DNA from: a virus
Lineage: Duplodnaviria; Caudoviricetes
DNA length: 28,611 nucleotides
IMG/VR virus record: IMGVR_UViG_3300010048_000364
Span: 1 to 28,611 of that record
Strand: one strand, 5' to 3'
Positions 7,728-27,519 of this stretch are shown piece by piece; the first letter of the stretch is position 1, and the number at the start of each line of letters is the position of its first letter. A model generated the notes under the pieces. It ran no database searches, was not told the DNA's origin, and worked only from the letters and a program-made list of their open reading frames with translations. The position numbers were made by a program, and so were the translations under genes.

Positions 7728-8254
7728 GCGGGATCGGCGGCTCGAGCGACCCGCCGGGCACCCAATGGCTGCGATCGTACTGGCGCTGGAAACCAGATAA
7801 CCCTGGAGACATGTTCACGCCGCAGCAAAACCTCGAGCGCAACCAGCAGTTCGCCAAGCCGGGGCCGTACATCACGCCGCTGAGCGCGCAGGAGCAGCCG
7901 CTGTTCAACGAGTGGCTCAAGACCGGGGCGATGGGGGCGCCGGTCAACTACCAGCATGGCGACCTCGACTACGACATGCCGGGCTTCTGGAAGGCGATGC
8001 AGGCAGGCGACCCCGAAGCAAAGCCCCAGGTGGTGCGGGAGGACATCGATCGCGCCACCGGCAAGCCGAGGGTGCACTTTCCCGACAAATGGAAGACGCC
8101 CTACGAGGCAACGTTTTCGCAGGGCTCGATGTACGCGCTGCCGCACGCGCCCAAATGGGTGCAGGTGGGCAAAGATCACTGGCAGTACCGGCTCGGCTCG
8201 CACGTCATCTTTGATGACAACGAGAGGCGTTGGCGCGGGATGCCGCAGCAATAA
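7724..8254 (+). CDS. Hypothetical protein (176 aa)
   Basis: ATGA overlap with upstream stop and TAATG overlap with downstream start; the ORF-track start at 7493 is an over-extension. Confidence 0.7.
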   Translation: MSGIGGSSDPPGTQWLRSYWRWKPDNPGDMFTPQQNLERNQQFAKPGPYITPLSAQEQPLFNEWLKTGAMGAPVNYQHGDLDYDMPGFWKAMQAGDPEAKPQVVREDIDRATGKPRVHFPDKWKTPYEATFSQGSMYALPHAPKWVQVGKDHWQYRLGSHVIFDDNERRWRGMPQQ

Positions 8255-9864
8255 TGCCGATCGCCTCCGACAACCAGCCGACCATCATCGAGCTTGCGCA
8301 CTGGCCGCAGGGCGGGCTCAACCAGTCGACCCGGCGCAGCACAATCGAGGACGCGGATCTGTGGTGGGTTGAGAACTATTTCCCCTTGGCGAACGGCGAA
8401 TTGCGCACCGCCTGGGGACCGTCGGCGCCGCTGTGGACCGCGCCCGCCGGGGTGTCGATCCTGCGCATCTTCTTCACCAACATGAACGGCACCGACCCGA
8501 TCGCCCTGCTCTACCTCTCCAACGGCACCATCCAGGTCGTCAACCTCAACACCAACGCCACGCTCAACCTCGGCATTCTGTGGAACCCGGTGGCGCCCAA
8601 CTACCCCGCCGATTTCAAGTTGTGGACACCGACGACGGTCGGCAACACCACCGGACAGGTCGGCGGCGGGCTCATCGGCAGTCCGCGCGGGCTCTACGCG
8701 ATCGACGCAAACTTCACCATCAGCCCGCCGGGGTCGAACGCCCCGACCTGGCTGACCGGCGGCGCCACCACCGATGCGAGCGGCAACCCGCTGGTCATGC
8801 CCTCGGGATTGCCGGGCATCTTTGCGATGGAGGTCTATAACCAGCGCCTGTTTGTCCTCGGGCAGACGGTGGTCAGCTTCTCGGCCCCGAGCAACGGCGC
8901 CGACTTCTCGACCGCGGGCGGTGGTGGCAGCTTCCCCTATTTCGGTGACCAACTGACTGTGTCGTTCACCGAGATGTGCGCCACCGCCGGGTTCCTCTAC
9001 ATCTTTGGCGATTCGATGACCGACTGGATCTCGAACATCCAGCTGGTCGGGCAGGCGCAGGCGACGACCTCGCCTTCTGTCACCACGCCCTACACCACCG
9101 AGTTCCAGCTGAGCAACTACAACCCGCAGATCGGTCAGCGGTTCTTCCGCCCGGTGGGCAAGTGGCTGCAGGCACTGACGGTGTTTGATCTCGCCGGGGT
9201 TTATTTGATGTCTGGCGACGGTCAGGCGACGTGGCTGACGCAGAAGGTCACCAATCTGTGGCACAGCCTCAACCCGACGCCGTTTCAGCCGACCGCAGCC
9301 CCGGTGCATGTCTTCGGGCAGCGCTGGCTGCTGTTCAACGGCACCTTTACCGATCCCTGGGGTGTCGCGCGCTCGATGATCCTTTGCTGGAACGGACAGA
9401 TCTGGACCGTCGCCTCGCAACGCTACGCGCTCACCCATATCGGCTTCTACGAGCAGGATTCGTGCATCACCGCCTACGGCACCGACGGCTCGGTGCTGGT
9501 GCAGCTGTTCGCCCAGCCCGATCCCGCGCTCGAGAAGCGGCTCAGCACAAAAGCCTATAACGGTTCCCCGCCCGAGCCGCTCGCGATCAAGAACTGGAAG
9601 CGCAGCTACATGCACCTGCGCGACATGGCCGGACAGCCCGAAGGCAGCTTTCTCACCGGCAGCTTCTCAACCGCTGGCGGCGGCATCCCCAACGGCTCGC
9701 AGCGGGTGTCGTTCGAGGTGCAGCCGAATATCGATGACATCCGCCCGCACCCGACCGAGGGTCAGGGGATCTTTGGCTGGCTCGACCTTACGTCGAATAG
9801 CCCCGATTTCATCATCGAGCGGATTTTGCTAGCCTACGAATCGCGAACACTCTTCGGCGCCTAG
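8254..9864 (+). CDS. Tail nozzle / packaged-DNA stabilisation protein (P22 gp10 / tubular protein B-like)
   Basis: 536 aa, beta-propeller-like composition, N-terminal GGLNQ...IED motif, YNQRLFV; position after adaptor. Confidence 0.7.
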   Translation: MPIASDNQPTIIELAHWPQGGLNQSTRRSTIEDADLWWVENYFPLANGELRTAWGPSAPLWTAPAGVSILRIFFTNMNGTDPIALLYLSNGTIQVVNLNTNATLNLGILWNPVAPNYPADFKLWTPTTVGNTTGQVGGGLIGSPRGLYAIDANFTISPPGSNAPTWLTGGATTDASGNPLVMPSGLPGIFAMEVYNQRLFVLGQTVVSFSAPSNGADFSTAGGGGSFPYFGDQLTVSFTEMCATAGFLYIFGDSMTDWISNIQLVGQAQATTSPSVTTPYTTEFQLSNYNPQIGQRFFRPVGKWLQALTVFDLAGVYLMSGDGQATWLTQKVTNLWHSLNPTPFQPTAAPVHVFGQRWLLFNGTFTDPWGVARSMILCWNGQIWTVASQRYALTHIGFYEQDSCITAYGTDGSVLVQLFAQPDPALEKRLSTKAYNGSPPEPLAIKNWKRSYMHLRDMAGQPEGSFLTGSFSTAGGGIPNGSQRVSFEVQPNIDDIRPHPTEGQGIFGWLDLTSNSPDFIIERILLAYESRTLFGA

Positions 9865-9877
9865 AGGAGGGCATCCC

Positions 9878-10030
9878 GTGGCAAGGCTACGCAGTCGGTT
9901 TGGGGTTCGCCGCCCCGCGCTACGACAACACTACGGCGTGGGCATCCGCTTTCCTCGACCACCAAACCACCGCGCCTTGCGCGGCGGCGACATGCGCGCC
10001 CGCATCGGCCGCATGAGCCGCAGACGCTAA
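9878..10030 (+). CDS. Arg-rich peptide 1 (50 aa)
   Basis: GAGGAGG SD at 9864-9870, GTG start; MARLRSRFGVRRPALRQHYGVGIRFPRPPNHRALRGGDMRARIGRMSRRR (16 Arg). Not in the ORF track. Confidence 0.7.
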   Translation: MARLRSRFGVRRPALRQHYGVGIRFPRPPNHRALRGGDMRARIGRMSRRR

Positions 10031-10107
10031 TGGCTTTTCGTAGCCCGCTCGAAGGCGGGCGAACCGGCCCCGTTCGTGGTGAACGGGCAGAAGAAGGAGG
10101 GCGAAAG

Positions 10108-10170
10108 ATGGCACGTCGATTAAAGAACACGCGCAGAGCCCGTCGCATAAGGGCACGTCGCCGCCGCTAG
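10108..10170 (+). CDS. Protamine-like peptide 2 (20 aa)
   Basis: AAGGAGG SD at 10094-10100; MARRLKNTRRARRIRARRRR. An in-frame upstream ATG at 10030 (TAATG overlap) could give a 46-aa form. Confidence 0.72.
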   Translation: MARRLKNTRRARRIRARRRR

Positions 10171-10604
10171 ATTCCCGGCAGGATCAATTGCGGGGATTGA
10201 TTTGTGGCGTGGTGCGTGAGGTACGCAATCATCTTGCGTAGCAAGTCCCTGTCATCCCCCACCTGACCGAGAACAAGGTTGCAGCGGCTACAGAGCCAAC
10301 CTCTGGCATGGCCGAGTTTGTGGCAGTGGTCAGCGTTGAGTTTTTTGTCGCTCGCTTCGCCACAAAGCTCGCAAACCTCAGGCGGGGGGCGTCCCATCAG
10401 TTCGATGCGGCGGCGCTCTTCCCAACGGCGGCGATAATCATCCCGTTTTTTGGGGTTCTTTGCGTTGTAGTCGCGAGCGTATGCCCGAGACTTCGCTCTT
10501 GCCTCTGGCTTCGCTAAGTACTTGAGGCGGCTTTTGCGGAACTTGTCGGCATGCGCACGTGCGTAGGCGCGCATGTAGTCCTGCTTCTTTGTGGTATTAG
10601 GCAT
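10167..10604 (-). CDS. Endonuclease VII-like (HNH) nuclease
   Basis: CELCGE...DHCHKLGHARGWLCSRCNLVLG motif; basic N-terminal repeat region; AAGGAG SD on the - strand. Confidence 0.88.
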   Translation of the reverse strand: MPNTTKKQDYMRAYARAHADKFRKSRLKYLAKPEARAKSRAYARDYNAKNPKKRDDYRRRWEERRRIELMGRPPPEVCELCGEASDKKLNADHCHKLGHARGWLCSRCNLVLGQVGDDRDLLRKMIAYLTHHATNQSPQLILPGI

Positions 10605-10637
10605 CAGCCGTGCTCCTTCTAGGCAGGAGTAGGGTCA

Positions 10638-10673
10638 GGGGCGATGGCAACCGGCCCAGGTTGCTATCGCTCC
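10638..10673 (+). promoter_or_regulatory. 15-bp stem-loop with G-U pairs
   Basis: GGGGCGATGGCAACC-GGCCCA-GGTTGCTATCGCTCC in the divergent gap between the endonuclease and peptide 3. Confidence 0.55.
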
Positions 10674-10697
10674 GTAGTTTAGCAGGAGGGAATAGCT

Positions 10698-10781
10698 ATG
10701 GCACGTCGTAGGGGTGGTCGCCGATTGGTTTTAGTTCCGGCAAGTCGCAGGGCAGCCCGTGCCCGCCGTCGTCGCCGGTAA
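10698..10781 (+). CDS. Protamine-like peptide 3 (27 aa)
   Basis: AGGAGG SD at 10684-10689; MARRRGGRRLVLVPASRRAARARRRRR (13 Arg). Confidence 0.72.
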   Translation: MARRRGGRRLVLVPASRRAARARRRRR

Positions 10782-11280
10782 CTTCAAGCTGACCGCACCG
10801 GAGCCGTCCGAAAAAGACATTCACGGCGCGGTTCGCGATCTGCTGGATCTGTGCCTCGCCCCACCGGCAGTTTGGACGCCATATCCGGCGGGGGTTACTG
10901 CGCTCTCGCCAGCGCAATTCGCGCAGTATTCACGCTTTGGTTTGAAGCGTGGTTTTCCGGATGTGCTTATTTTTTACGATCTTGTTTTCGGCATTGAGCT
11001 AAAGCGCCGAGGCGGGCGCCTGTCGAAGACCCGCATCGTTCGCACCCGCCGGGGAAGTCCCCGCGAATTGATCGGGCAGGAAGAGATGCACGCCAAGCTG
11101 CTTGGCACGGGAGCCTTTGGCGCGATCGCCGTTGCGCGTAGTGTCGATGATGTGTGCCGATTGCTTGATGATTGGCATATCCCCAGAGTAGGAGGCAGGA
11201 AATGGCTAGCCGCGCTCAGCGTAAGGCCGCTCGCAGAAATCTCCGCAGAGCCCGCGCCCGCAGGAGGCGGTAGTGCCTAA
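10759..11280 (+). CDS. VRR-NUC / PD-(D/E)XK nuclease
   Basis: SEKDIH...GLKRGFPDVLIF...IELKRRGGRLS...Q...VARSVDDV, the VRR-NUC signature. Start uncertain. Confidence 0.82.
   Translation: MPAVVAGNFKLTAPEPSEKDIHGAVRDLLDLCLAPPAVWTPYPAGVTALSPAQFAQYSRFGLKRGFPDVLIFYDLVFGIELKRRGGRLSKTRIVRTRRGSPRELIGQEEMHAKLLGTGAFGAIAVARSVDDVCRLLDDWHIPRVGGRKWLAALSVRPLAEISAEPAPAGGGSA
11202..11273 (+). CDS. Protamine-like peptide 4 (23 aa), nested in the VRR-NUC 3' end
   Basis: AGGAGG SD at 11190-11195; MASRAQRKAARRNLRRARARRRR; the stop overlaps the next GTG start (TAGTG). Confidence 0.72.
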   Translation: MASRAQRKAARRNLRRARARRRR

Positions 11281-11578
11281 CCGAGATCGATCATGGCCGT
11301 ACAGAACGGGTCAGGCGGACTCACCCCCGGCGATAACGGTGAGTCCGGATACGGATCTGAACTCCGCGCGCTCACTCGCCGGGCCTTTGCGGCTCGGTAC
11401 GGAGCCGAGGGTCGGCCCGCGGGGGAACGTCGCAAACGGCGGCGAGTTCGCAACCGACTTCGGCGTCGATAGGATCAGCCCGCGCGGGTTTGACCCGATG
11501 GGGACCAGCGATACGCGCCTGCCGCCGCAGGAAGCCTCGGAGTTGCTGAGCCGTGCCGGGCGTCGCAGGCGGGGTTAG
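11273..11578 (+). CDS. Hypothetical protein (101 aa, basic C-terminal RRRRG)
   Basis: AGGAGG SD upstream, coupled to the peptide 4 stop. Confidence 0.6.
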   Translation: MPNRDRSWPYRTGQADSPPAITVSPDTDLNSARSLAGPLRLGTEPRVGPRGNVANGGEFATDFGVDRISPRGFDPMGTSDTRLPPQEASELLSRAGRRRRG

Positions 11579-11975
11579 CAGCCGCAAGCTCGAGGCGGGG
11601 CAATCGCCGATCCAGTACCCCGACCTGTTGTCGGCGTCGACCACGCTGGTGCAATCGGGCTCGGGCTATCTGCGCCTCGTCAACGCGCTGCAGACCCTCG
11701 ACCAGGCCGCCAACGTTCTAACGCTCGACGGACTCATCACTTCGCAGGCGTCGGCGATCGCCACCTTGCAGTCGCAGATGGCGCAGACCATCACCGCCGT
11801 GCAGACGTTGCAGACCCAGGTCTTCACGTTGCAGTCGCAGGTCGCGGCGCTGCAGGCGCAGCTTGACGGGGTCAGCTTTGGCGCGGTCGGGCCGACCGTG
11901 CCGTCGATCGCCGCGGGGAGCATCGCCACCACCATCAGCGGCACGCAGTATCTGCTCCCGCTTTATTCGTCGTGA
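11553..11975 (+). CDS. Coiled-coil virion protein (tail needle / short fibre-like)
   Basis: Heptads IATLQSQ-MAQTITA-VQTLQTQ-VFTLQSQ-VAALQAQ-L; position equivalent to P22 gp26. Confidence 0.55.
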   Translation: MPGVAGGVSSRKLEAGQSPIQYPDLLSASTTLVQSGSGYLRLVNALQTLDQAANVLTLDGLITSQASAIATLQSQMAQTITAVQTLQTQVFTLQSQVAALQAQLDGVSFGAVGPTVPSIAAGSIATTISGTQYLLPLYSS

Positions 11976-12382
11976 TCCGCGACATCACCGCCAACGACAT
12001 CCCGTGGGTGGCCGCGCTCTGTCAGCGCCGCTACGACATGAGCCGCTACGACGTCGGCGGCGGGCTGGTGGCGCTGACCCAGGCGATGAACCTCCCGACC
12101 GCGATTGCTTGGCGCAATGATCACGCCTTTCTCGTCGGCAATCAGCAGGCGCGGACCTGGGCGCCGAAGCGCCGCTCTTTGCATATTCTCGCGATTTGCG
12201 TCGAAGAGGGGCATCATTGGGCAGCGGCAGAACTCTTGCGCGAGAGCGTCGAGTGGGCCCGCGCTCGGGGGTGCAAAAAGTGGTGGATCGCGACCGAGAC
12301 TGAATTCGAGGTCGGCGCCCTTGCCAAGCGGATCGGGGCGCACCCCGAGACAGTCTACGCGATTGACCTTGCGAAGGACTGA
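11972..12382 (+). CDS. GNAT-fold protein
   Basis: MIRDITANDIPWV...LHILAICVEE...AAAELLRESVEWARARGCKKWWI; GNAT-like genes commonly precede ejection proteins in podoviruses. Confidence 0.7.
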   Translation: MIRDITANDIPWVAALCQRRYDMSRYDVGGGLVALTQAMNLPTAIAWRNDHAFLVGNQQARTWAPKRRSLHILAICVEEGHHWAAAELLRESVEWARARGCKKWWIATETEFEVGALAKRIGAHPETVYAIDLAKD

Positions 12383-12385
12383 GCC

Positions 12386-12940
12386 ATGACAAGCTCGTTA
12401 TTTAGCGGCGGCAATGTCGCGGGCGTCGAGCAGCAGATCGAAAACCTCATCCCGTCATTCCAGAACTTCGCGGGCCAGTCCGACACCCTTGGCGGCATCG
12501 AGCAAAGCCAGGGGGTCAACGACATCTACCCGACCGCACTGGATCAGTACCAGAAAGGCGCGGCGGGGCAATTGACCGACGCGCAGCAGGCGGCGGTCAA
12601 CCAGACCAAGCAGCAGATGGATCTCGCCACCTCGGGCACCTATGCCAATCTGGGGCTCGGCGGCTCGACCATGAAGACGCAGGATCTCGACGCCAACGCG
12701 CAGAAGAGTCTCGCGCAGACCGTCGGCTTCTCGGCGCTCGATGAGGAGCTTGGTCTGAAGGGATTGTCCACGGCGCTCGGCTTTGAGCAGGGGGCGAACA
12801 CCTCCTTTGGCACGGCGGCGAGTTCATTGGGGCAGGGGGCGAACGCGCTCGCGGGCGTCGGCAATCTCGCCGCAGGCCAGCAGGCGGCGCAGATGCAGGC
12901 CTTGGGCAGCATCGGCTCGGCGCTCGGCAGTAAGTTCTGA
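12386..12940 (+). CDS. DNA ejection / pilot protein (small)
   Basis: G/A/Q/S-rich with C-terminal ALGSIGSALG; position equivalent to P22 gp7. Confidence 0.6.
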   Translation: MTSSLFSGGNVAGVEQQIENLIPSFQNFAGQSDTLGGIEQSQGVNDIYPTALDQYQKGAAGQLTDAQQAAVNQTKQQMDLATSGTYANLGLGGSTMKTQDLDANAQKSLAQTVGFSALDEELGLKGLSTALGFEQGANTSFGTAASSLGQGANALAGVGNLAAGQQAAQMQALGSIGSALGSKF

Positions 12941-20398: not shown

Positions 20399-20674
20399 TC
20401 ACTCTCGCCAATGTTTTTCATTGCGGATGGCCGAGGCGATGGTCGCTGGCGGGAGTTGATCGAAATACTCAGCGATCCGCGCGCACCGCTCTCGTTCCTC
20501 TGCGCGAACGGCAGCAAATTGGCTCACCAAATCACCGGCAAATTCTGCGATCACCTCTGCACGAATGGTGTCGAGGGCAATAGCCACGCGAAGGATCGTT
20601 TCCCCCAATAGCCATTCGCCACCATCCAGAGCATCGCGCGCCAGTTCCATCGAGCGCGAGGATGGCTCACTCAT
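20399..20674 (-). CDS. Hypothetical protein (91 aa)
   Basis: ATG immediately after a repeat copy; contains AVRAEERERCARIAE...IASAIR, a motif frequent in phage accessory proteins. Confidence 0.7.
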   Translation of the reverse strand: MSEPSSRSMELARDALDGGEWLLGETILRVAIALDTIRAEVIAEFAGDLVSQFAAVRAEERERCARIAEYFDQLPPATIASAIRNEKHWRE

Positions 20675-21971
20675 CGGATGTCCTCTCCTCACTCTTTGCA
20701 GCAATTTCAATGCGCCCCAGAATCCAGCGCACGACCGGCACCGCCATGCTGTTGCCCAGCGCGCGGTAGCGCGGGCCATCGGCGGCCGGCTTGCCGCGCC
20801 AGGCGATCAGCGTGAAGTCGTCGGGGAAGCCCTGTAGGCGCTCGCATTCGCGCGGCGTCAATCGACGCACCGACATGGCTGATGCAACGTGCGGCGTGCG
20901 CTCTGTACTCTGCAAAGGATAGGACGGCAGATCAGCCGCAAACCGCGTGCGATCATAGGGCGAGGTGACCTTGTTCGGATTGAACGCGACCGCCGGATAG
21001 CCTTCGCCAGGTTTGCCGCCGCCGGTCGTCAGTTGCGCCGCAATCTCTGCTGTGCGCAGTTCGCCACGCTGGTTCTGGGCAAAGGCGACGGCGTGCTGGT
21101 CGCGCTTGGTGAGCGTAAACACGACGGCGAGCGGACCATCGGTCTTCAGCGGCTTGTTGAGGCTCCATTCCGGTTGTCGCGCGGTCGGGTCGAAGACAAA
21201 CGTGTCGTTGTCGAGATCGCCGCGCCAGCCGCCGTCGCCCTTCGCGCCCAGCGGGTTGGCGACTAGTGCATCGCACTCATTCTCGTTTCCAAGTCCGCGG
21301 TTGCGCCCAAGGCTTTCGCTAAGTGTCCCGGCAACTCCTTCCCCCGTCTCTCGGCCCGGCGCAGGATGCCGCTGCAAGCTCGCGGGCTCAAAAAGTACCG
21401 TTGCGGCAGCGGCCCATCCTCCAAGAGGTCCGACAACGAAGACGCGACGCCGTCGCTGGGGAACTCCGAAATGTTGAGCGTCAAGCGTCCGGTAGGCCCA
21501 CCCATACCCGCATTGCTCCACTGCCCCGACAAAGATGCCAAAGTCCCGTCCGCCTTCCGATGACAGGAGGCCGGGGACGTTCTCGAAAAGAAACCAGCGG
21601 GGGCGCAGTGCTGCAACCAAACGAAGGGCGACGAGGGCCAGGTTGCCGCGCGGATCGTCCAGCCCGGCGCGCTTTCCGGCGACGGAGAAGGATTGGCAGG
21701 GCGAGCCGAAGACGATGAGGTCCACAGGCTCAACTGTGCGGAAGTCGATTTTCGTGACGTCGCCAAGGTTGGGGACTCCTTGGAAGCGGGTTTTGTGGAC
21801 GGCAGCGGCGAACGGCTCGATCTCGGCGCACCAGCGCCAGTCGATCCACGGCGCGGCGATCTCCGGTGCGCCGATGCCGCTGAAGAGCGTGCCGCCCTTG
21901 AGCGAGGATGGCGTATCCGCGCTGTAATTCGACTTTTCAGCAGCTTGTGGCGGGATGCTATCTGTTCCCAC
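20667..21971 (-). CDS. C5-cytosine DNA methyltransferase
   Basis: Motifs LFSGIG (I), GSPCQSFS (IV), ENVPG (VI), PQRRRRVF (VIII), RRLTPRECERLQGFPD (IX), ALGNSMAVPV (X); AAGGAGG SD. Confidence 0.95.
   Translation of the reverse strand: MGTDSIPPQAAEKSNYSADTPSSLKGGTLFSGIGAPEIAAPWIDWRWCAEIEPFAAAVHKTRFQGVPNLGDVTKIDFRTVEPVDLIVFGSPCQSFSVAGKRAGLDDPRGNLALVALRLVAALRPRWFLFENVPGLLSSEGGRDFGIFVGAVEQCGYGWAYRTLDAQHFGVPQRRRRVFVVGPLGGWAAAATVLFEPASLQRHPAPGRETGEGVAGTLSESLGRNRGLGNENECDALVANPLGAKGDGGWRGDLDNDTFVFDPTARQPEWSLNKPLKTDGPLAVVFTLTKRDQHAVAFAQNQRGELRTAEIAAQLTTGGGKPGEGYPAVAFNPNKVTSPYDRTRFAADLPSYPLQSTERTPHVASAMSVRRLTPRECERLQGFPDDFTLIAWRGKPAADGPRYRALGNSMAVPVVRWILGRIEIAAKSEERTSDE
21263..21766 (-). CDS. Nested out-of-frame methyltransferase partner (M.EcoHK31I beta-like arrangement)
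   Basis: Alternative frame reads SSLSDLLEDGPLPQRYFLSPRACSGILRRAERRGKELP, a segment I recognise from ORFs overlapping phage C5-MTases. Start uncertain. Confidence 0.6.
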   Translation of the reverse strand: MATSRKSTSAQLSLWTSSSSARPANPSPSPESAPGWTIRAATWPSSPFVWLQHCAPAGFFSRTSPASCHRKADGTLASLSGQWSNAGMGGPTGRLTLNISEFPSDGVASSLSDLLEDGPLPQRYFLSPRACSGILRRAERRGKELPGHLAKALGATADLETRMSAMH

Positions 21972-22053
21972 GATTCGCCCCCTCCTTCAGCGGATCAGCA
22001 GCGTGACGAGCATTCCGGTGCAGGCCCCGCGAGCAGCATCAAGAGGTAATGGC

Positions 22054-22251
22054 TCACTCCGCGCTATTCCTGCTGACGACCGAGATGTAGGCGCGGCCGG
22101 ATTTGCCCTGGACGACAAGCTCGTTGAGTTGGCTGTCGAGCGATTGCACTGCGGTCGTCAGCGGCACCAGCACCTGGGTGATTTTCTCGATCGCCGCGGC
22201 GATGCGGACGAGGTGCTTCAACAGGATCTCGGTCTGCTGCTGCTCGGTCAT
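22054..22251 (-). CDS. Hypothetical coiled-coil protein (65 aa)
   Basis: GGAGG SD; packed in the operon. Confidence 0.65.
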   Translation of the reverse strand: MTEQQQTEILLKHLVRIAAAIEKITQVLVPLTTAVQSLDSQLNELVVQGKSGRAYISVVSRNSAE

Positions 22252-22252
22252 C

Positions 22253-22441
22253 TCACCCCTCCACCTTCATTTCCTCGCAGTGGTAGACCGGCATGAAGTG
22301 CCCGACCCCGCTCTTCTCGCCGGCGGCGGCATAGCGTGCCTGCGCCGCCTGGCATCCCGAGAGGGTGCTGTAGACCCCGAGATTCCGCCCGCCATCGACG
22401 CACAGCGCGGTCATCACCACGGCGAGCACAAAGACGCTCAT
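22253..22441 (-). CDS. Small protein with hydrophobic N-terminus and Cys residues
   Basis: MSVFVLAVVMTALC...CQAAQA...C; ATGA coupling. Confidence 0.6.
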   Translation of the reverse strand: MSVFVLAVVMTALCVDGGRNLGVYSTLSGCQAAQARYAAAGEKSGVGHFMPVYHCEEMKVEG

Positions 22442-23037
22442 GCGATGACCTGTCGAATCAGCGTTCTGCTTACAGAGAATTGCCGGGCAAGACCCCGTTG
22501 TGACACACCGTTTGCGGATGCCGCGCGAATTTCTAATCGCTGTTCTCTGGTGAGTTTTCTTGTTGGTTGCCGACGGTTTTTGCCTTGTTCATTCAATGGA
22601 AGCCAAACGCAGTTCCCTGGCTCATAATTTCCATCGTTGTTGATCCTTTCGATGGAATGTCCTGACGGCCTCGGCCCCATATCGGCGATGAAGTTTGCGA
22701 AAACGTGCCACCGTTCGCAAACCGTAATTCCGCGCCCGCCATAATTCTTGTAGCCAGCATCTTTCGTATTGGTACAGCGTTGAAGAAGATGGTTCCAAGC
22801 GCAGTATTCGGGCGAGCCACTCTGTCCGTGTGTGGTAATCAATTCGCGGCGCAGACAACCGCATGACAGAGTATTTCCGGTCACTAAGTTGACGGCCGTC
22901 ACGATTGTGTACCGGCCACAATCACAACGGCAGGACCATGCCGTATTGCGGCGCGGAACCCGGCTAGCGCGCTGATGTAGCGTCATAACTTGAAGCCGAC
23001 CAAATCGCAATCCGGTGATGTCACGCAGAGTTGCCAT
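22438..23037 (-). CDS. HNH homing-endonuclease-like protein with C-terminal HTH
   Basis: DITGLRFGRL, WSCRCDCG, SCGC, YGGRGITVCERW, SIERINNDGNYEPGNCVW; C-terminal SQRGLARQFSVSRTLI; lower GC than neighbours. Confidence 0.88.
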   Translation of the reverse strand: MATLRDITGLRFGRLQVMTLHQRASRVPRRNTAWSCRCDCGRYTIVTAVNLVTGNTLSCGCLRRELITTHGQSGSPEYCAWNHLLQRCTNTKDAGYKNYGGRGITVCERWHVFANFIADMGPRPSGHSIERINNDGNYEPGNCVWLPLNEQGKNRRQPTRKLTREQRLEIRAASANGVSQRGLARQFSVSRTLIRQVIA

Positions 23038-23668
23038 TCCACTTTTTCCAGATCATCTCGCACTTGCGGAAGTTCTCCTCCAAACGGTCGCAGAATCCTT
23101 CCAGCGTGCGTGCCATTGCACGGATGAACGCTTCATCGCGTCCCAAGCTAATATAGTAAGGGGGGGCATCGTGCCGATAGCTAAAAAAGTGGCATGAATC
23201 GCACTCGCTGACATAGAGTTGCCCCTGCACCTGCGTGTAGTAGTCCTCGCCGATGCCGTTGATCAGATGCTTGATCTGCGTGGTGATCTCGGGGGCCTTG
23301 ATTTCTACCAGTTCCAAAGTGTTGCCGACCTCGATGCGGCGGTCGGGCGAGGCGCCGAGGTGCCCGTCGTCGGTGGTAAAGAAGCCGCCGGGGAAGAGCA
23401 GAGTGTTAAGCTCTTTCCCGAGCTTTTCCGCCGCCTCGTCCTCACGCTCGACGCCGTAGCGCACCGCTGGAGTGTTGGGAACATCGCGCCCCACAGGTCG
23501 CCCGAAAAGCCGCTCGCCGATGAGTTCGGCCTCGTAAGTCTTGGCGCCCTCGGCCTTGAGCGCACCCTTGGCGTTGATGAAGCGGGAGAAGGCGGATGCG
23601 GTGGGCTTGCCGCGCCGCGCCTCGTACCACTTGTCCGAGCGGTGGATCAGGGGTTCAAATTTCATCAT
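23021..23668 (-). CDS. YqaJ / lambda-exonuclease family protein
   Basis: WYEARRGKPTAS, YGVEREDEA, LGASPD, VEIKAP, YYTQVQGQL; real start MMKFEP at 23668 with GGGGAGGG SD. Confidence 0.92.
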   Translation of the reverse strand: MMKFEPLIHRSDKWYEARRGKPTASAFSRFINAKGALKAEGAKTYEAELIGERLFGRPVGRDVPNTPAVRYGVEREDEAAEKLGKELNTLLFPGGFFTTDDGHLGASPDRRIEVGNTLELVEIKAPEITTQIKHLINGIGEDYYTQVQGQLYVSECDSCHFFSYRHDAPPYYISLGRDEAFIRAMARTLEGFCDRLEENFRKCEMIWKKWNGNSA

Positions 23669-23816
23669 CCCTCCCCTCGACCTCGACGCTGCCTTCGCCG
23701 CCGCAGGTGCGGCAGGTGTCCCACTGCAGATGCACACGGTCGTACTGGTCGCAGACTTCGCTGACGATGGTTGCCCCCTGGCCGCCGCAGGTCGGGCACT
23801 CTTCACTCTGGTTCAT
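23655..23816 (-). CDS. Stand-alone DnaJ-type zinc-finger mini-protein (53 aa)
   Basis: MNQSEECPTCGGQG...TCRTCGGEGSVEVEGRDDEI (two CxxCxGxG); fills the gap between erf and the exonuclease; not in the ORF track. Confidence 0.75.
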   Translation of the reverse strand: MNQSEECPTCGGQGATIVSEVCDQYDRVHLQWDTCRTCGGEGSVEVEGRDDEI

Positions 23817-24549
23817 GCTGTTCTTCTTCCTTCTTCTGTTTGTTTTGCTCGATGGTCGTCGTCAGCCAGCGGACGACGCGCTCGTAGTGGGAATCGGAAA
23901 TCTCATCGATCCGCGCGGCGTTGACCGCGTTCAGCATCTTGGTCAATCGCTCCTCATCGAGGTTTGCCTCGTCGGTGAGCTTGCGGATTTCGGCGGCGCG
24001 CTCCGAGGAAATCGGCAGGTCGATCGGGACTTGCGGTTGGCCGCCGCGCCCGTCGTCGTCCTTCTCTGCCGCGACCCCGAGCGCCGCCTTGAGCGTGTAG
24101 CGCTGTAGGTAGCTTACGGTGCTCCCGACCGACTGCACCGGGTTCTTGGCGCCCGTGGTGTCGGGCGGGGCGGTCAGCGAGGACTCTTCCGAATAGCCCC
24201 ATTTGTGGCTCAGGATGCAGGTGACCGTCACCGTACGGTCGGGATTGCTCTGGGTGCGCCAGCGATAGTGCAGCCCGTGATCCTTGAGCACTGGATCGAC
24301 CAGCTTGCAGATCTCGGCGAGGTCTTCGTATTTGTATTTTGGGCCCCGCCCCTGATCGACCGGGATGTTTTTGAGGATCGGCGGCAGCTCCACCCCGGCA
24401 AGCGCTTCCTCGAACGCCTGCTTCGCCCGGTGATGCTCCCAGCGTTCTTGCAGGCCCATCAGCTTCTCGATTACCTCGGGCGTGGCGTTCGCCGTCACGG
24501 CGCGGTCGAGGATGGTTACCGGCGTTAGTTCGCGCCTGTCGTCGCTCAT
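23803..24549 (-). CDS. erf: ERF-family single-strand annealing protein
   Basis: YKYEDL...PVLKDHGL...VTCILSH..G...Q.VGSTVSYLQRYTLKAALGV...DDDG; AAAGGAG SD; paired with the exonuclease. Confidence 0.93.
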   Translation of the reverse strand: MSDDRRELTPVTILDRAVTANATPEVIEKLMGLQERWEHHRAKQAFEEALAGVELPPILKNIPVDQGRGPKYKYEDLAEICKLVDPVLKDHGLHYRWRTQSNPDRTVTVTCILSHKWGYSEESSLTAPPDTTGAKNPVQSVGSTVSYLQRYTLKAALGVAAEKDDDGRGGQPQVPIDLPISSERAAEIRKLTDEANLDEERLTKMLNAVNAARIDEISDSHYERVVRWLTTTIEQNKQKKEEEQHEPE

Positions 24550-26209: not shown

Positions 26210-26338
26210 ATGGCCGAGAAGCTTTCCCGCGAGTGTGCCGCCGACGCCAAGCGCGCGGTCATCGCGCATGAGCGCCGGATGCATCGCGGCAAGCGGCCGA
26301 CTTTCCGCGCCAGACGTTCCCGCGCCGGGAGGCGCTGA
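26210..26338 (+). CDS. Small basic protein (42 aa)
   Basis: MAEKLSRECAADAKRAVIAHERRMHRGKRPTFRARRSRAGRR; TAAAAT -10-like box 6 nt upstream of the ATG; TGATG coupling. Confidence 0.6.
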   Translation: MAEKLSRECAADAKRAVIAHERRMHRGKRPTFRARRSRAGRR

Positions 26339-26508
26339 TGCCCGGCCCGAGCCGCTTCTCCGCGAAAGAGGATCGGCAGGCCGCCCATGTAGCCGCTTCC
26401 GAGCGCGCCCGCGGTCGGTCAGCCAGGGATGCCAAACGTATCGCTTATGCGACAATTGTCTCGCGGGGCGGTGGGCGACGTTCAAAGCGTAGGCACAAGC
26501 GCAGGTAA
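26338..26508 (+). CDS. Small basic protein (56 aa), ChaB-like helical pattern
   Basis: MPGPSRFSAKEDRQAAHVAASERARGRSARDAKRIAYATIVSRGGGRRSKRRHKRR. Confidence 0.65.
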   Translation: MPGPSRFSAKEDRQAAHVAASERARGRSARDAKRIAYATIVSRGGGRRSKRRHKRR

Positions 26509-26877: not shown

Positions 26878-27064
26878 CGACCTGGTAGGCGCGGCGCAGG
26901 CCGTTGCCGCGACCTCGGCGAATGCACCCGCAGGCCCGGTGCCCGAGCAGGCGGCGCAACCGAGCGTGAGCGATCGGCTCGCGGCGCTGGAAAACTTCGC
27001 GATCACCTTCGGCCCGGTCCTGGAAAAGCTCGCCCCTCTCTTGGAAAAACTGGAGGCGCTATGA
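26861..27064 (+). CDS. Hypothetical protein (67 aa)
   Basis: GGAGG SD before ATG 26861; ATGA coupling with the lysozyme. Confidence 0.7.
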   Translation: MAGILDDLVGAAQAVAATSANAPAGPVPEQAAQPSVSDRLAALENFAITFGPVLEKLAPLLEKLEAL

Positions 27065-27519
27065 CCAGCTACGCAACCTCGGCGCCCATGCGCCAGCTGA
27101 TCGAATCGTGGGAAGGCTGCAGATTAGAACCGTACCAAGACTCGGTCGGGGTCTGGACAATCGGTTTCGGCCACACGGGCGATGATTGCTACGAGGGCTG
27201 CGACCCGATCGCGCAGGAACAGGCCGACCAGCTGCTCGCCGCCGATCTGCAGCGGTTCGAAGAGGCGGTCAACGGCATGGTTGCCGACGCCACATCGCAG
27301 CAACAGTTCGATGCGATGGTCAGCTTCTCGTATAATCTCGGCGAATCCGCGCTCAGAGGCTCCACATTGCTGCGCCTGCACAACGCGGGCGACTACCAGG
27401 GCGCCGCCGGGCAATTCGGCCGCTGGAACCACGCGGGCGGGCAGGTGCTCGCAGGGCTCACCCGGCGCCGCGAGGGCGAAGCCAAGGTCTATGCGGAGGG
27501 CAATTACAGCGCAGCGTGA
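27061..27519 (+). CDS. Endolysin, GH24 lysozyme
   Basis: Catalytic E-x8-D-x5-T (WEGCRLEPYQDSVGVWTIGFGHT), QFDAMVSFSYNLG, GLTRRREGE. Confidence 0.96.
   Translation: MTSYATSAPMRQLIESWEGCRLEPYQDSVGVWTIGFGHTGDDCYEGCDPIAQEQADQLLAADLQRFEEAVNGMVADATSQQQFDAMVSFSYNLGESALRGSTLLRLHNAGDYQGAAGQFGRWNHAGGQVLAGLTRRREGEAKVYAEGNYSAA

Follow-up and report, generated by a model that had tools for sequence, protein, structure and literature searches.

Does a tailed phage encode protamine-like peptides of its own, and what would it use them for? This question is raised by a locus in the window, a stretch of 28,611 nt from a virus of the Caudoviricetes, in which an earlier note had described four Arg-rich micro-genes hidden in the virion module. 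All four ORFs were found on the + strand with the described positions and translations (Table 1). An AGGAGG motif is located 7, 7, 8 and 6 nt upstream of the starts of peptides 1 to 4, respectively, and the C-termini consist of runs of 3, 4, 5 and 4 Arg. Peptides 2 and 3 have the nucleotide start ATGGCACGTCG in common. With 11 R in 20 aa, 13 R in 27 aa and 11 R in 23 aa, peptides 2 to 4 are composed of 48–55% Arg without any D or E, which is a protamine-like composition. Peptide 1 contains 32% Arg (16 R) and one D in 50 aa, and its start codon is GTG, which corrects the earlier note. The motif R.RARRRR, previously attributed to peptides 2 to 4, stands for peptides 2 and 4; peptide 3 displays RARRRR alone. 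No other SD-led ORF on the list for the window reaches an Arg fraction as high as these four.

Table 1. Position of the array units, embedded genes and flanking genes in the window
Feature	Position	Strand	Remark
Tail nozzle (P22 gp10 / T7 gp12 fold), upstream anchor of the array	8230..9864	+	AlphaFold and Foldseek
Peptide 1, family D (YG.G.RFPRPP core), GTG start, SD spacer 7	9878..10030	+	50 aa, net +15
Family H unit (GGRTGPV core)	10030..10107	+	fifth unit, absent from the earlier note
Peptide 2, family A (L.[QM]TRRA[RK]R[IM]RAR core)	10108..10170	+	20 aa, net +12
Endonuclease VII-family gene	10167..10604	-	PF02945 E 2.5e-18; between peptides 2 and 3
15-bp hairpin, between endonuclease start and peptide 3 SD	10638..10673		fold of 10605-10710
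Peptide 3, family B ([ML]VLVPASR core)	10698..10781	+	27 aa, net +13
VRR-NUC-like putative Holliday-junction resolvase, overlaps peptides 3 and 4 in another frame	10759..11280	+	phrog_5702 E 7.9e-4
Peptide 4, family C (R[RK]NLR[KR]AR core)	11202..11273	+	23 aa, net +12
101-aa Gly/Pro/Arg-rich protein, last gene of the array	11273..11578	+	conserved
Needle-like coiled coil and GNAT gene	11553..12382	+	phrog_1219 E 0.0083 (weak), phrog_1249 E 8e-8

The family H unit belongs to ORF 10030–10170, the start of which overlaps the stop of ORF1. It continues in frame into peptide 2, so that translation could yield a product of 46 aa as well as one of 20 aa. The same in-frame run-on from H to A is present in the relatives L005 and L008. 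For the 101-aa gene that closes the array, frame and start are retained in relatives, and the protein is likely disordered according to its Atlas model (pLDDT 0.30). Searches of Pfam, PHROG and NCBIfam gave no match for it; on size it is a gp7.3-like candidate. By eye, a PR..DP.G-like stretch in this protein is similar to the core of family F. An Arg-rich alternative frame (11293–11472) was considered as a gene and rejected as a shadow of ORF 11273–11578.

The nozzle gene was identified from an AlphaFold model of its 544-aa product (pLDDT 77.7), for which Foldseek returned the Pa223 tail (E 2.4e-15), the P22 tail complex (9.4e-12) and T7 gp12. The window further encodes a terminase, portal, major head, adaptor-like, needle-like, GNAT and transglycosylase-bearing ejection protein, several of these labels coming from weak matches. 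Ejection-protein genes follow the needle-like/GNAT gene. This is the order of the P22 tail and ejection genes, 10-26-14-7-20-16 (PMC5850374, available part), except that the array comes in between nozzle and needle. A promoter and terminator scan of positions 9000–12500 remained at chance level. Genes for a C5 DNA methyltransferase, an HNH protein, a YqaJ exonuclease and an ERF annealing protein are located at 20667–24549 on the minus strand. Near the lysozyme gene (27061–27519), an SD-led 56-aa basic ORF with an Arg/Lys tail was noticed on the + strand (26338–26508, net +14). It had no match in Pfam, PHROG or NCBIfam, nor did tblastn find one in the retrieved loci, the majority of which may end short of this region. 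GenBank matches to the head protein were limited to 2 records, at 36%. The best match to the DNA of the window comes from a soil metagenome, possibly its source; in three DNA runs, one contig covers the entire stretch, beside pieces of other relatives, and no RNA data set with the stretch was listed. Relatives were found in four genome bins, and the array is present on both of the long contigs, which were binned with Xanthobacteraceae and Caulobacteraceae; such binning can mislead. In L165 (5001–7253), L416 and L419 (2486–4750), the nozzle match extends over about 2,250 nt instead of the usual 1,630 or so, which suggests an insertion of about 600 nt.

The earlier note had considered that SD-led poly-Arg units of this kind are hard to obtain from GC-rich frame noise. 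A strict scanner (strict SD, 9–80 aa, R+K of at least 30%, D+E of at most 10%) detected 4 ORFs in positions 9865–11280. The same scan of 2000 dinucleotide shuffles of the array yielded no ORF in 1962 cases, one in 36 and two in 2, and never more than two, in agreement with that view.

Conservation was investigated with 80 loci obtained by the head protein (the best 80 of 146). From these best 80 of 146, 46 distinct relatives span the region between the nozzle and the 101-aa gene, giving 47 intervals together with the window. With a strict SD and R+K of at least 33%, these intervals (again from the best 80 of 146) contain 102 Arg-rich SD-led micro-ORFs in 70,284 nt, against 9 in the 811,069 nt that make up the remainder of the same loci. 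In this set from the best 80 of 146, no strict-SD basic ORF was found on the minus strand of the intervals, and 3 of the 47 intervals lack any ORF under the strict-SD rule. When a looser rule was applied (M-A or M-P start, R+K of at least 22%, SD not required), each array showed 3–9 basic micro-ORFs with a median of 6, compared to 0–2 in control stretches. The micro-ORFs tile the interval, often stop-to-start, and both content and order of the array vary between relatives. A six-frame check of the relatives between nozzle and needle, as proposed earlier, revealed that ORFs and SD sites are retained and that changes are biased to synonymous sites (pN < pS). This runs against the frame-breaking changes and SD loss predicted for non-genes, and indicates that the micro-genes are real and selected.

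Peptide families were defined by a six-frame motif search blind to the SD, and the family motif matches lie on the + strand except for 2 stray ones. The motifs were counted in 112 distinct post-nozzle stretches (the window among them) that have 1 kb or more of flanking sequence, and in 127 nozzle genes as controls. Family A is the best conserved (85/112 stretches vs 0/127 controls), followed by H (74 vs 7), C (49 vs 0), B (34 vs 1) and D (10 vs 2); these counts describe spread and are no independent test, because the patterns were derived from these loci. Families F, G and pure poly-Arg occur in relatives and not in the window; counts for the F and G patterns were dropped as too loose (20/127 and 6/127 controls). 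The peptides had been described as paralogous. Each of them rather represents a separate orthologous family, recognisable by a fixed core of non-Arg residues; what they have in common is the low-complexity Arg tail alone, so that paralogy is unsupported. A possible homology between D and G was rejected (hhalign probability 0.3%); the two motifs co-occur in only 2/111 loci.

Selection was estimated from several comparisons. Within the cores, pN/pS is 0.21 for A, 0.15 for B and 0.21 for C, against 1.3–20 in other frames, values that are partly circular because the cores were picked by protein motif. In family A, 44 distinct DNA cores encode 15 peptides. The less circular whole-ORF values range from 0.22 to 0.44 in seven families, with pN < pS in 7/7. 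For positional pairs between the window and L005, pS is 0.61–0.89 and pN 0.14–0.31, with pN < pS in 5/5; the individual pS and pN values are 0.61 and 0.30 for peptide 1, 0.72 and 0.14 for the family H unit, 0.76 and 0.17 for peptide 3, and 0.64 and 0.17 for peptide 4. The head gene gives 0.70 and 0.11 in the same comparison. Synonymous sites are close to saturation with the peptides retained. Among 279 array ORFs, 163 terminate in R, 25 in L and 20 in Y.

No match to the peptides was found in Pfam and NCBIfam at E up to 1, where short low-complexity queries lower the sensitivity, and PHROGs returned just two matches, to families without function (E 0.25–0.43). The Atlas held no usable match for peptide 1 or the 101-aa ORF. 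A profile of family F matched 79 proteins, all unnamed or 'hypothetical'.

The array is not restricted to one position. A degenerate DNA pattern of family A identified 74 stretches in IMG/VR, of which 69 lie 53–758 nt downstream of a nozzle gene and 5 (4 distinct) directly after a portal gene whose product is 26–28% identical to that of the window. A near-identical peptide 2 occurs in sister clades with a portal about 27–29% identical. Portal searches (18 loci; best 80 of 315) provided 66 distinct post-portal stretches with enough flank. In this set, including the best 80 of 315, 64 of the 66 stretches bear SD-led basic peptides of 9–26 aa, and L259 and L261 bear none. With a slightly looser SD rule, 111 peptides were counted in 58,518 nt, compared to 4 in 572,007 nt and 0 on the minus strand (same stretches, including the best 80 of 315). 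In a clade of mostly 44–50% GC, the post-portal peptides are 12–14-aa Lys/Arg forms. Arg is exchanged for Lys with GC content (R/K 0.59/0.02 vs 0.29/0.28), suggesting that charge is the feature kept by the generic members. Basic peptides follow the portal in 1/75 members of the window's clade and the nozzle in 0/8 evaluable members of the sister clades, where nozzle ends come from partial matches; the two slots look mutually exclusive. Directly after the portal, three loci of the window's clade (L017:8095, L021:8515, L060:8423) show an SD-led ORF that ends in a short Gly/Arg tail and may be left over from the post-portal slot. With the strict scanner, no ORF was detected in the control phages BPP-1 and P22, and one stray ORF each in PBC5 (50 of 57 kb read) and F116 (50 of 65 kb read). 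The array is absent from Hydrogenobaculum phage 1, whose terminase is 29% identical. At MW202753 (4740–5038) and MW202825 (L088:8246–8506), hypothetical genes annotated on the minus strand in GenBank cover SD-led 13-aa peptides.

The possibility that the units are noise of GC-rich frames or non-coding sequence can be dismissed: although the window has about 63% GC and the peptides are absent from every family library searched, shuffles never reach the observed number of ORFs, the micro-ORFs are confined to the + strand of arrays in both the nozzle and the portal slot, third-position entropy is 1.5–1.6 vs 0.1–0.6 bits, all six Arg codons are in use, and GC noise is ruled out by the Lys-rich counterparts of 12–14 aa at 44–50% GC. 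As far as sequence comparison reaches, noise is refuted, and protamine-like micro-genes under protein-level selection in the virion module are confirmed.

Further genes are embedded in the array. The VRR-NUC-like relatives show weak matches to PF08774. In the resolvase slot of 46 relatives (from the best 80 of 146), 27 VRR-like, 13 Hjc-type and 5 RuvC-like genes and 1 other were found; in this remaining relative, L073, a RuvC-like motif is present. The types were assigned by comparing ten representatives with PHROGs and Pfam. The label 'RuvC-like' stands for what we take to be the RuvC motif, and PHROGs names this group Holliday junction resolvase. Each nozzle-type array thus has one resolvase-like gene out of three alternative families, and such non-orthologous replacement at a single site points to a role of the block in DNA maturation. 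In the window, the only start of the VRR-like ORF is a GTG at 10759, inside peptide 3. The corresponding ORF of L005 (8947) has no canonical start, and that of L347 (6022) shows none in the short stretch examined; in L004 and L013, a GTG sits on the stop of the peptide. A non-canonical start or decay is possibly involved. The endonuclease VII gene was not found at the corresponding spot in L005, L007 and L008 and is probably a mobile passenger. HNH endonuclease genes inside the arrays of L005 (9356–9898) and L031 (17398–18024) look like passengers as well, and an endonuclease VII relative is located between terminase and portal in L016 (5729–6097).

What do the peptides do? In the explanation put forward here, the chances of which we consider evenly balanced, they would be late, virion-associated DNA-binding polycations achieving a partial neutralisation, some of them docked by fixed motifs like T7 gp7.3. 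The array peptides would be made late together with the structural proteins, and would associate with the phage DNA inside or at the particle. Motif-free poly-Arg/Lys members would act as multivalent counter-ions partly screening the packaged DNA and, unlike polyamines, would be retained without leaching. Members with fixed Leu/Val/Pro/aromatic cores would probably be anchored to proteins of the head, portal or tail and reach the DNA through their Arg tails, as is the case for J/VP8 and gp7.3. At the same late stage, the embedded resolvase would make replicated DNA ready to be packaged. That the peptides are expressed late, bind DNA and reside in the virion is what we infer. Both known slots, behind nozzle and behind portal, lie in the virion module only; gene position shows timing, not location. 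The lack of a universal family (A 85, C 49, B 34 and D 10 of 112) counts against this explanation, and so does the lack of such ORFs in BPP-1 and P22. The near-identity of family A between clades with portals 27% identical would be explained more readily by a nucleic acid or a host factor as the target, or by horizontal transfer, than by a dock on a phage protein. Full neutralisation of the genome is unlikely, because about 3,500 copies of a +12 peptide would be needed for half the charge of a 42-kb genome. According to the available part of PMC3281028, there is no evidence that basic proteins play a large part in neutralising phage dsDNA, and dense packing leaves scant room. Polyamines relieve the pressure inside the capsid and can inhibit ejection to some extent (PMC2771126).

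It is less probable, though it deserves weight, that all members are low-copy plug or assembly peptides of the portal-tail channel, comparable to T7 gp7.3/gp6.7, without any bulk counter-ion role. By analogy they would hold the DNA end and aid nozzle assembly. A portal or nozzle gene flanks both slots, the fixed cores contain invariant Leu/Pro/Trp, and the nozzle is acidic (net -12), all of which fits such peptides; gp7.3 itself is basic, and its six copies sit where adaptor and nozzle meet and bind the DNA end in the tail channel (PMC11784390, available part). A single channel is nevertheless a poor fit for 3–9 peptides of variable content and order, the 12–14-aa forms have no docking motif, and no PHROG match at E up to 1 points to a structural family.

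The near-invariance of family A across divergent virions would agree with peptides that stay intracellular, an explanation to which we give slightly less weight. They would coat or condense progeny or host DNA late and then be stripped by the terminase, serving nuclease protection, host shut-off, or packaging staging with the resolvase, which is co-located in 45/46 relatives (from the best 80 of 146). The scant room in dense heads is in line with this as well (PMC3281028, available part). Both arrangements, however, place the array strictly among structural genes. Moreover, a condensed substrate should impede the packaging motor.

Conserved RNA structures near some of the arrays bear on another explanation, namely that the peptides are arginine-rich RNA-binding regulators (translational control, antitermination, ribosome inhibition), some binding RNA beside their own genes. 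This is improbable in our view. The peptides presumably resemble arginine-rich RNA-binding motifs, and in the low-GC clade a hairpin with an H-type pseudoknot was observed between two post-portal peptides, directly 5' of the second SD (L087:4795–4885, L088:8314–8402 and many of L262–L341). In 27 sequences, 91.6% of the cells are paired and 7/11 pairs have changed on both sides, the structure having been derived from these 27 sequences themselves; 0/500 shuffles, taking the best of slid registers, reached it. Four loci with the element had no match in Rfam, and at gathering score Rfam gave 0 matches in 7 sources. No such pseudoknot-type RNA was seen in the array of the window, and the element may merely control the translation of its own peptide. 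In addition, profiles of families A and F returned 0 matches in a PDB sequence search at E up to 10, and many families would be needless for a regulator. The window has the hairpin listed in Table 1 (z -4.3, 0/200 shuffles). In the loci with the pseudoknot, a terminator-like hairpin and TTGACA were seen by eye after the second post-portal peptide. L247–L251 have another non-coding motif that is conserved and includes a hairpin of variable form; it is located behind the portal between the family A and poly-Arg genes, directly 5' of the SD. Membrane-active or cell-penetrating peptides aiding entry or lysis are very improbable, since the peptides have no hydrophobic or signal segment and lysis genes are about 15 kb distant, despite an Arg content of 32–55% and ejection-protein genes directly downstream.

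Returning to partly neutralising, virion-associated polycations, known systems offer partial likenesses. T7 gp7.3/gp6.7 share the context of a tailed dsDNA podovirus and are small, basic, largely unstructured proteins encoded in the virion module (PMC11784390, available part). In contrast to gp7.3, a single 99-aa gene whose six-copy product has a C-terminal anchor, the array consists of 3–9 genes, mostly of 12–60 aa, Arg-terminated and from up to about ten families, and no homology to gp7.3 was detectable by PHROG/Pfam family search. J/VP8 of the Microviridae is likewise a tiny Arg/Lys-rich packaging peptide, with the basic part on DNA and a short capsid-docked motif; VP8 lines the SpV4 capsid (PMC11281519, in part). 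It belongs to ssDNA T=1 viruses, is encoded by a single gene and has a buried C-terminal hydrophobic/aromatic anchor, whereas the terminase, portal, major head and podovirus nozzle genes of the window belong to a dsDNA phage, and its four peptides all end in Arg. Adenovirus VII/mu and the protamine-like proteins of eukaryotic dsDNA viruses are also Arg-rich and near acid-free, and core proteins of the VII/mu type compact DNA in the virion (PMC4189039 and PMC3281028, available parts). These are eukaryotic viruses, and mu is cleaved from a precursor; the array peptides are instead encoded by stand-alone SD-led genes and are basic from residue 2–3 to the stop without a leader, the H-A run-on being the sole longer form in the array. 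Polyamines and cations are likewise proposed as multivalent counter-ions lowering capsid pressure (PMC2771126, in part). The peptides differ in being gene-encoded with net +12 to +15, and would not be expected to exchange freely through the shell. In the literature searched, no account of such arrays turned up, although catalogues of small genes could include the ORFs. The word 'arginine' is absent from the available part of PMC11323111. The multi-family array, its move between slots and the resolvase slot are new.

Lineage-wide selected protamine-like arrays in tailed phages make the neutralisation of phage DNA by basic proteins directly testable. Annotation misses this gene class, as illustrated by MW202753 and MW202825. 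If packaged, the peptides would offer a natural means of stabilising capsids and condensing DNA; otherwise they would serve a conserved late function of another kind. A bolder reading, which we hold only tentatively and find rather doubtful, is that a large uncultured podovirus lineage encodes a protamine set of several components and packs its dsDNA with it; the set would be a modular cassette of 2–9 peptides, the shortest of 12 aa, moved between the post-portal and post-nozzle slots. If true, it would provide a protein-based nucleoid-like core that adjusts the pressure in the capsid and the stability of the particle in settings poor in free cations.
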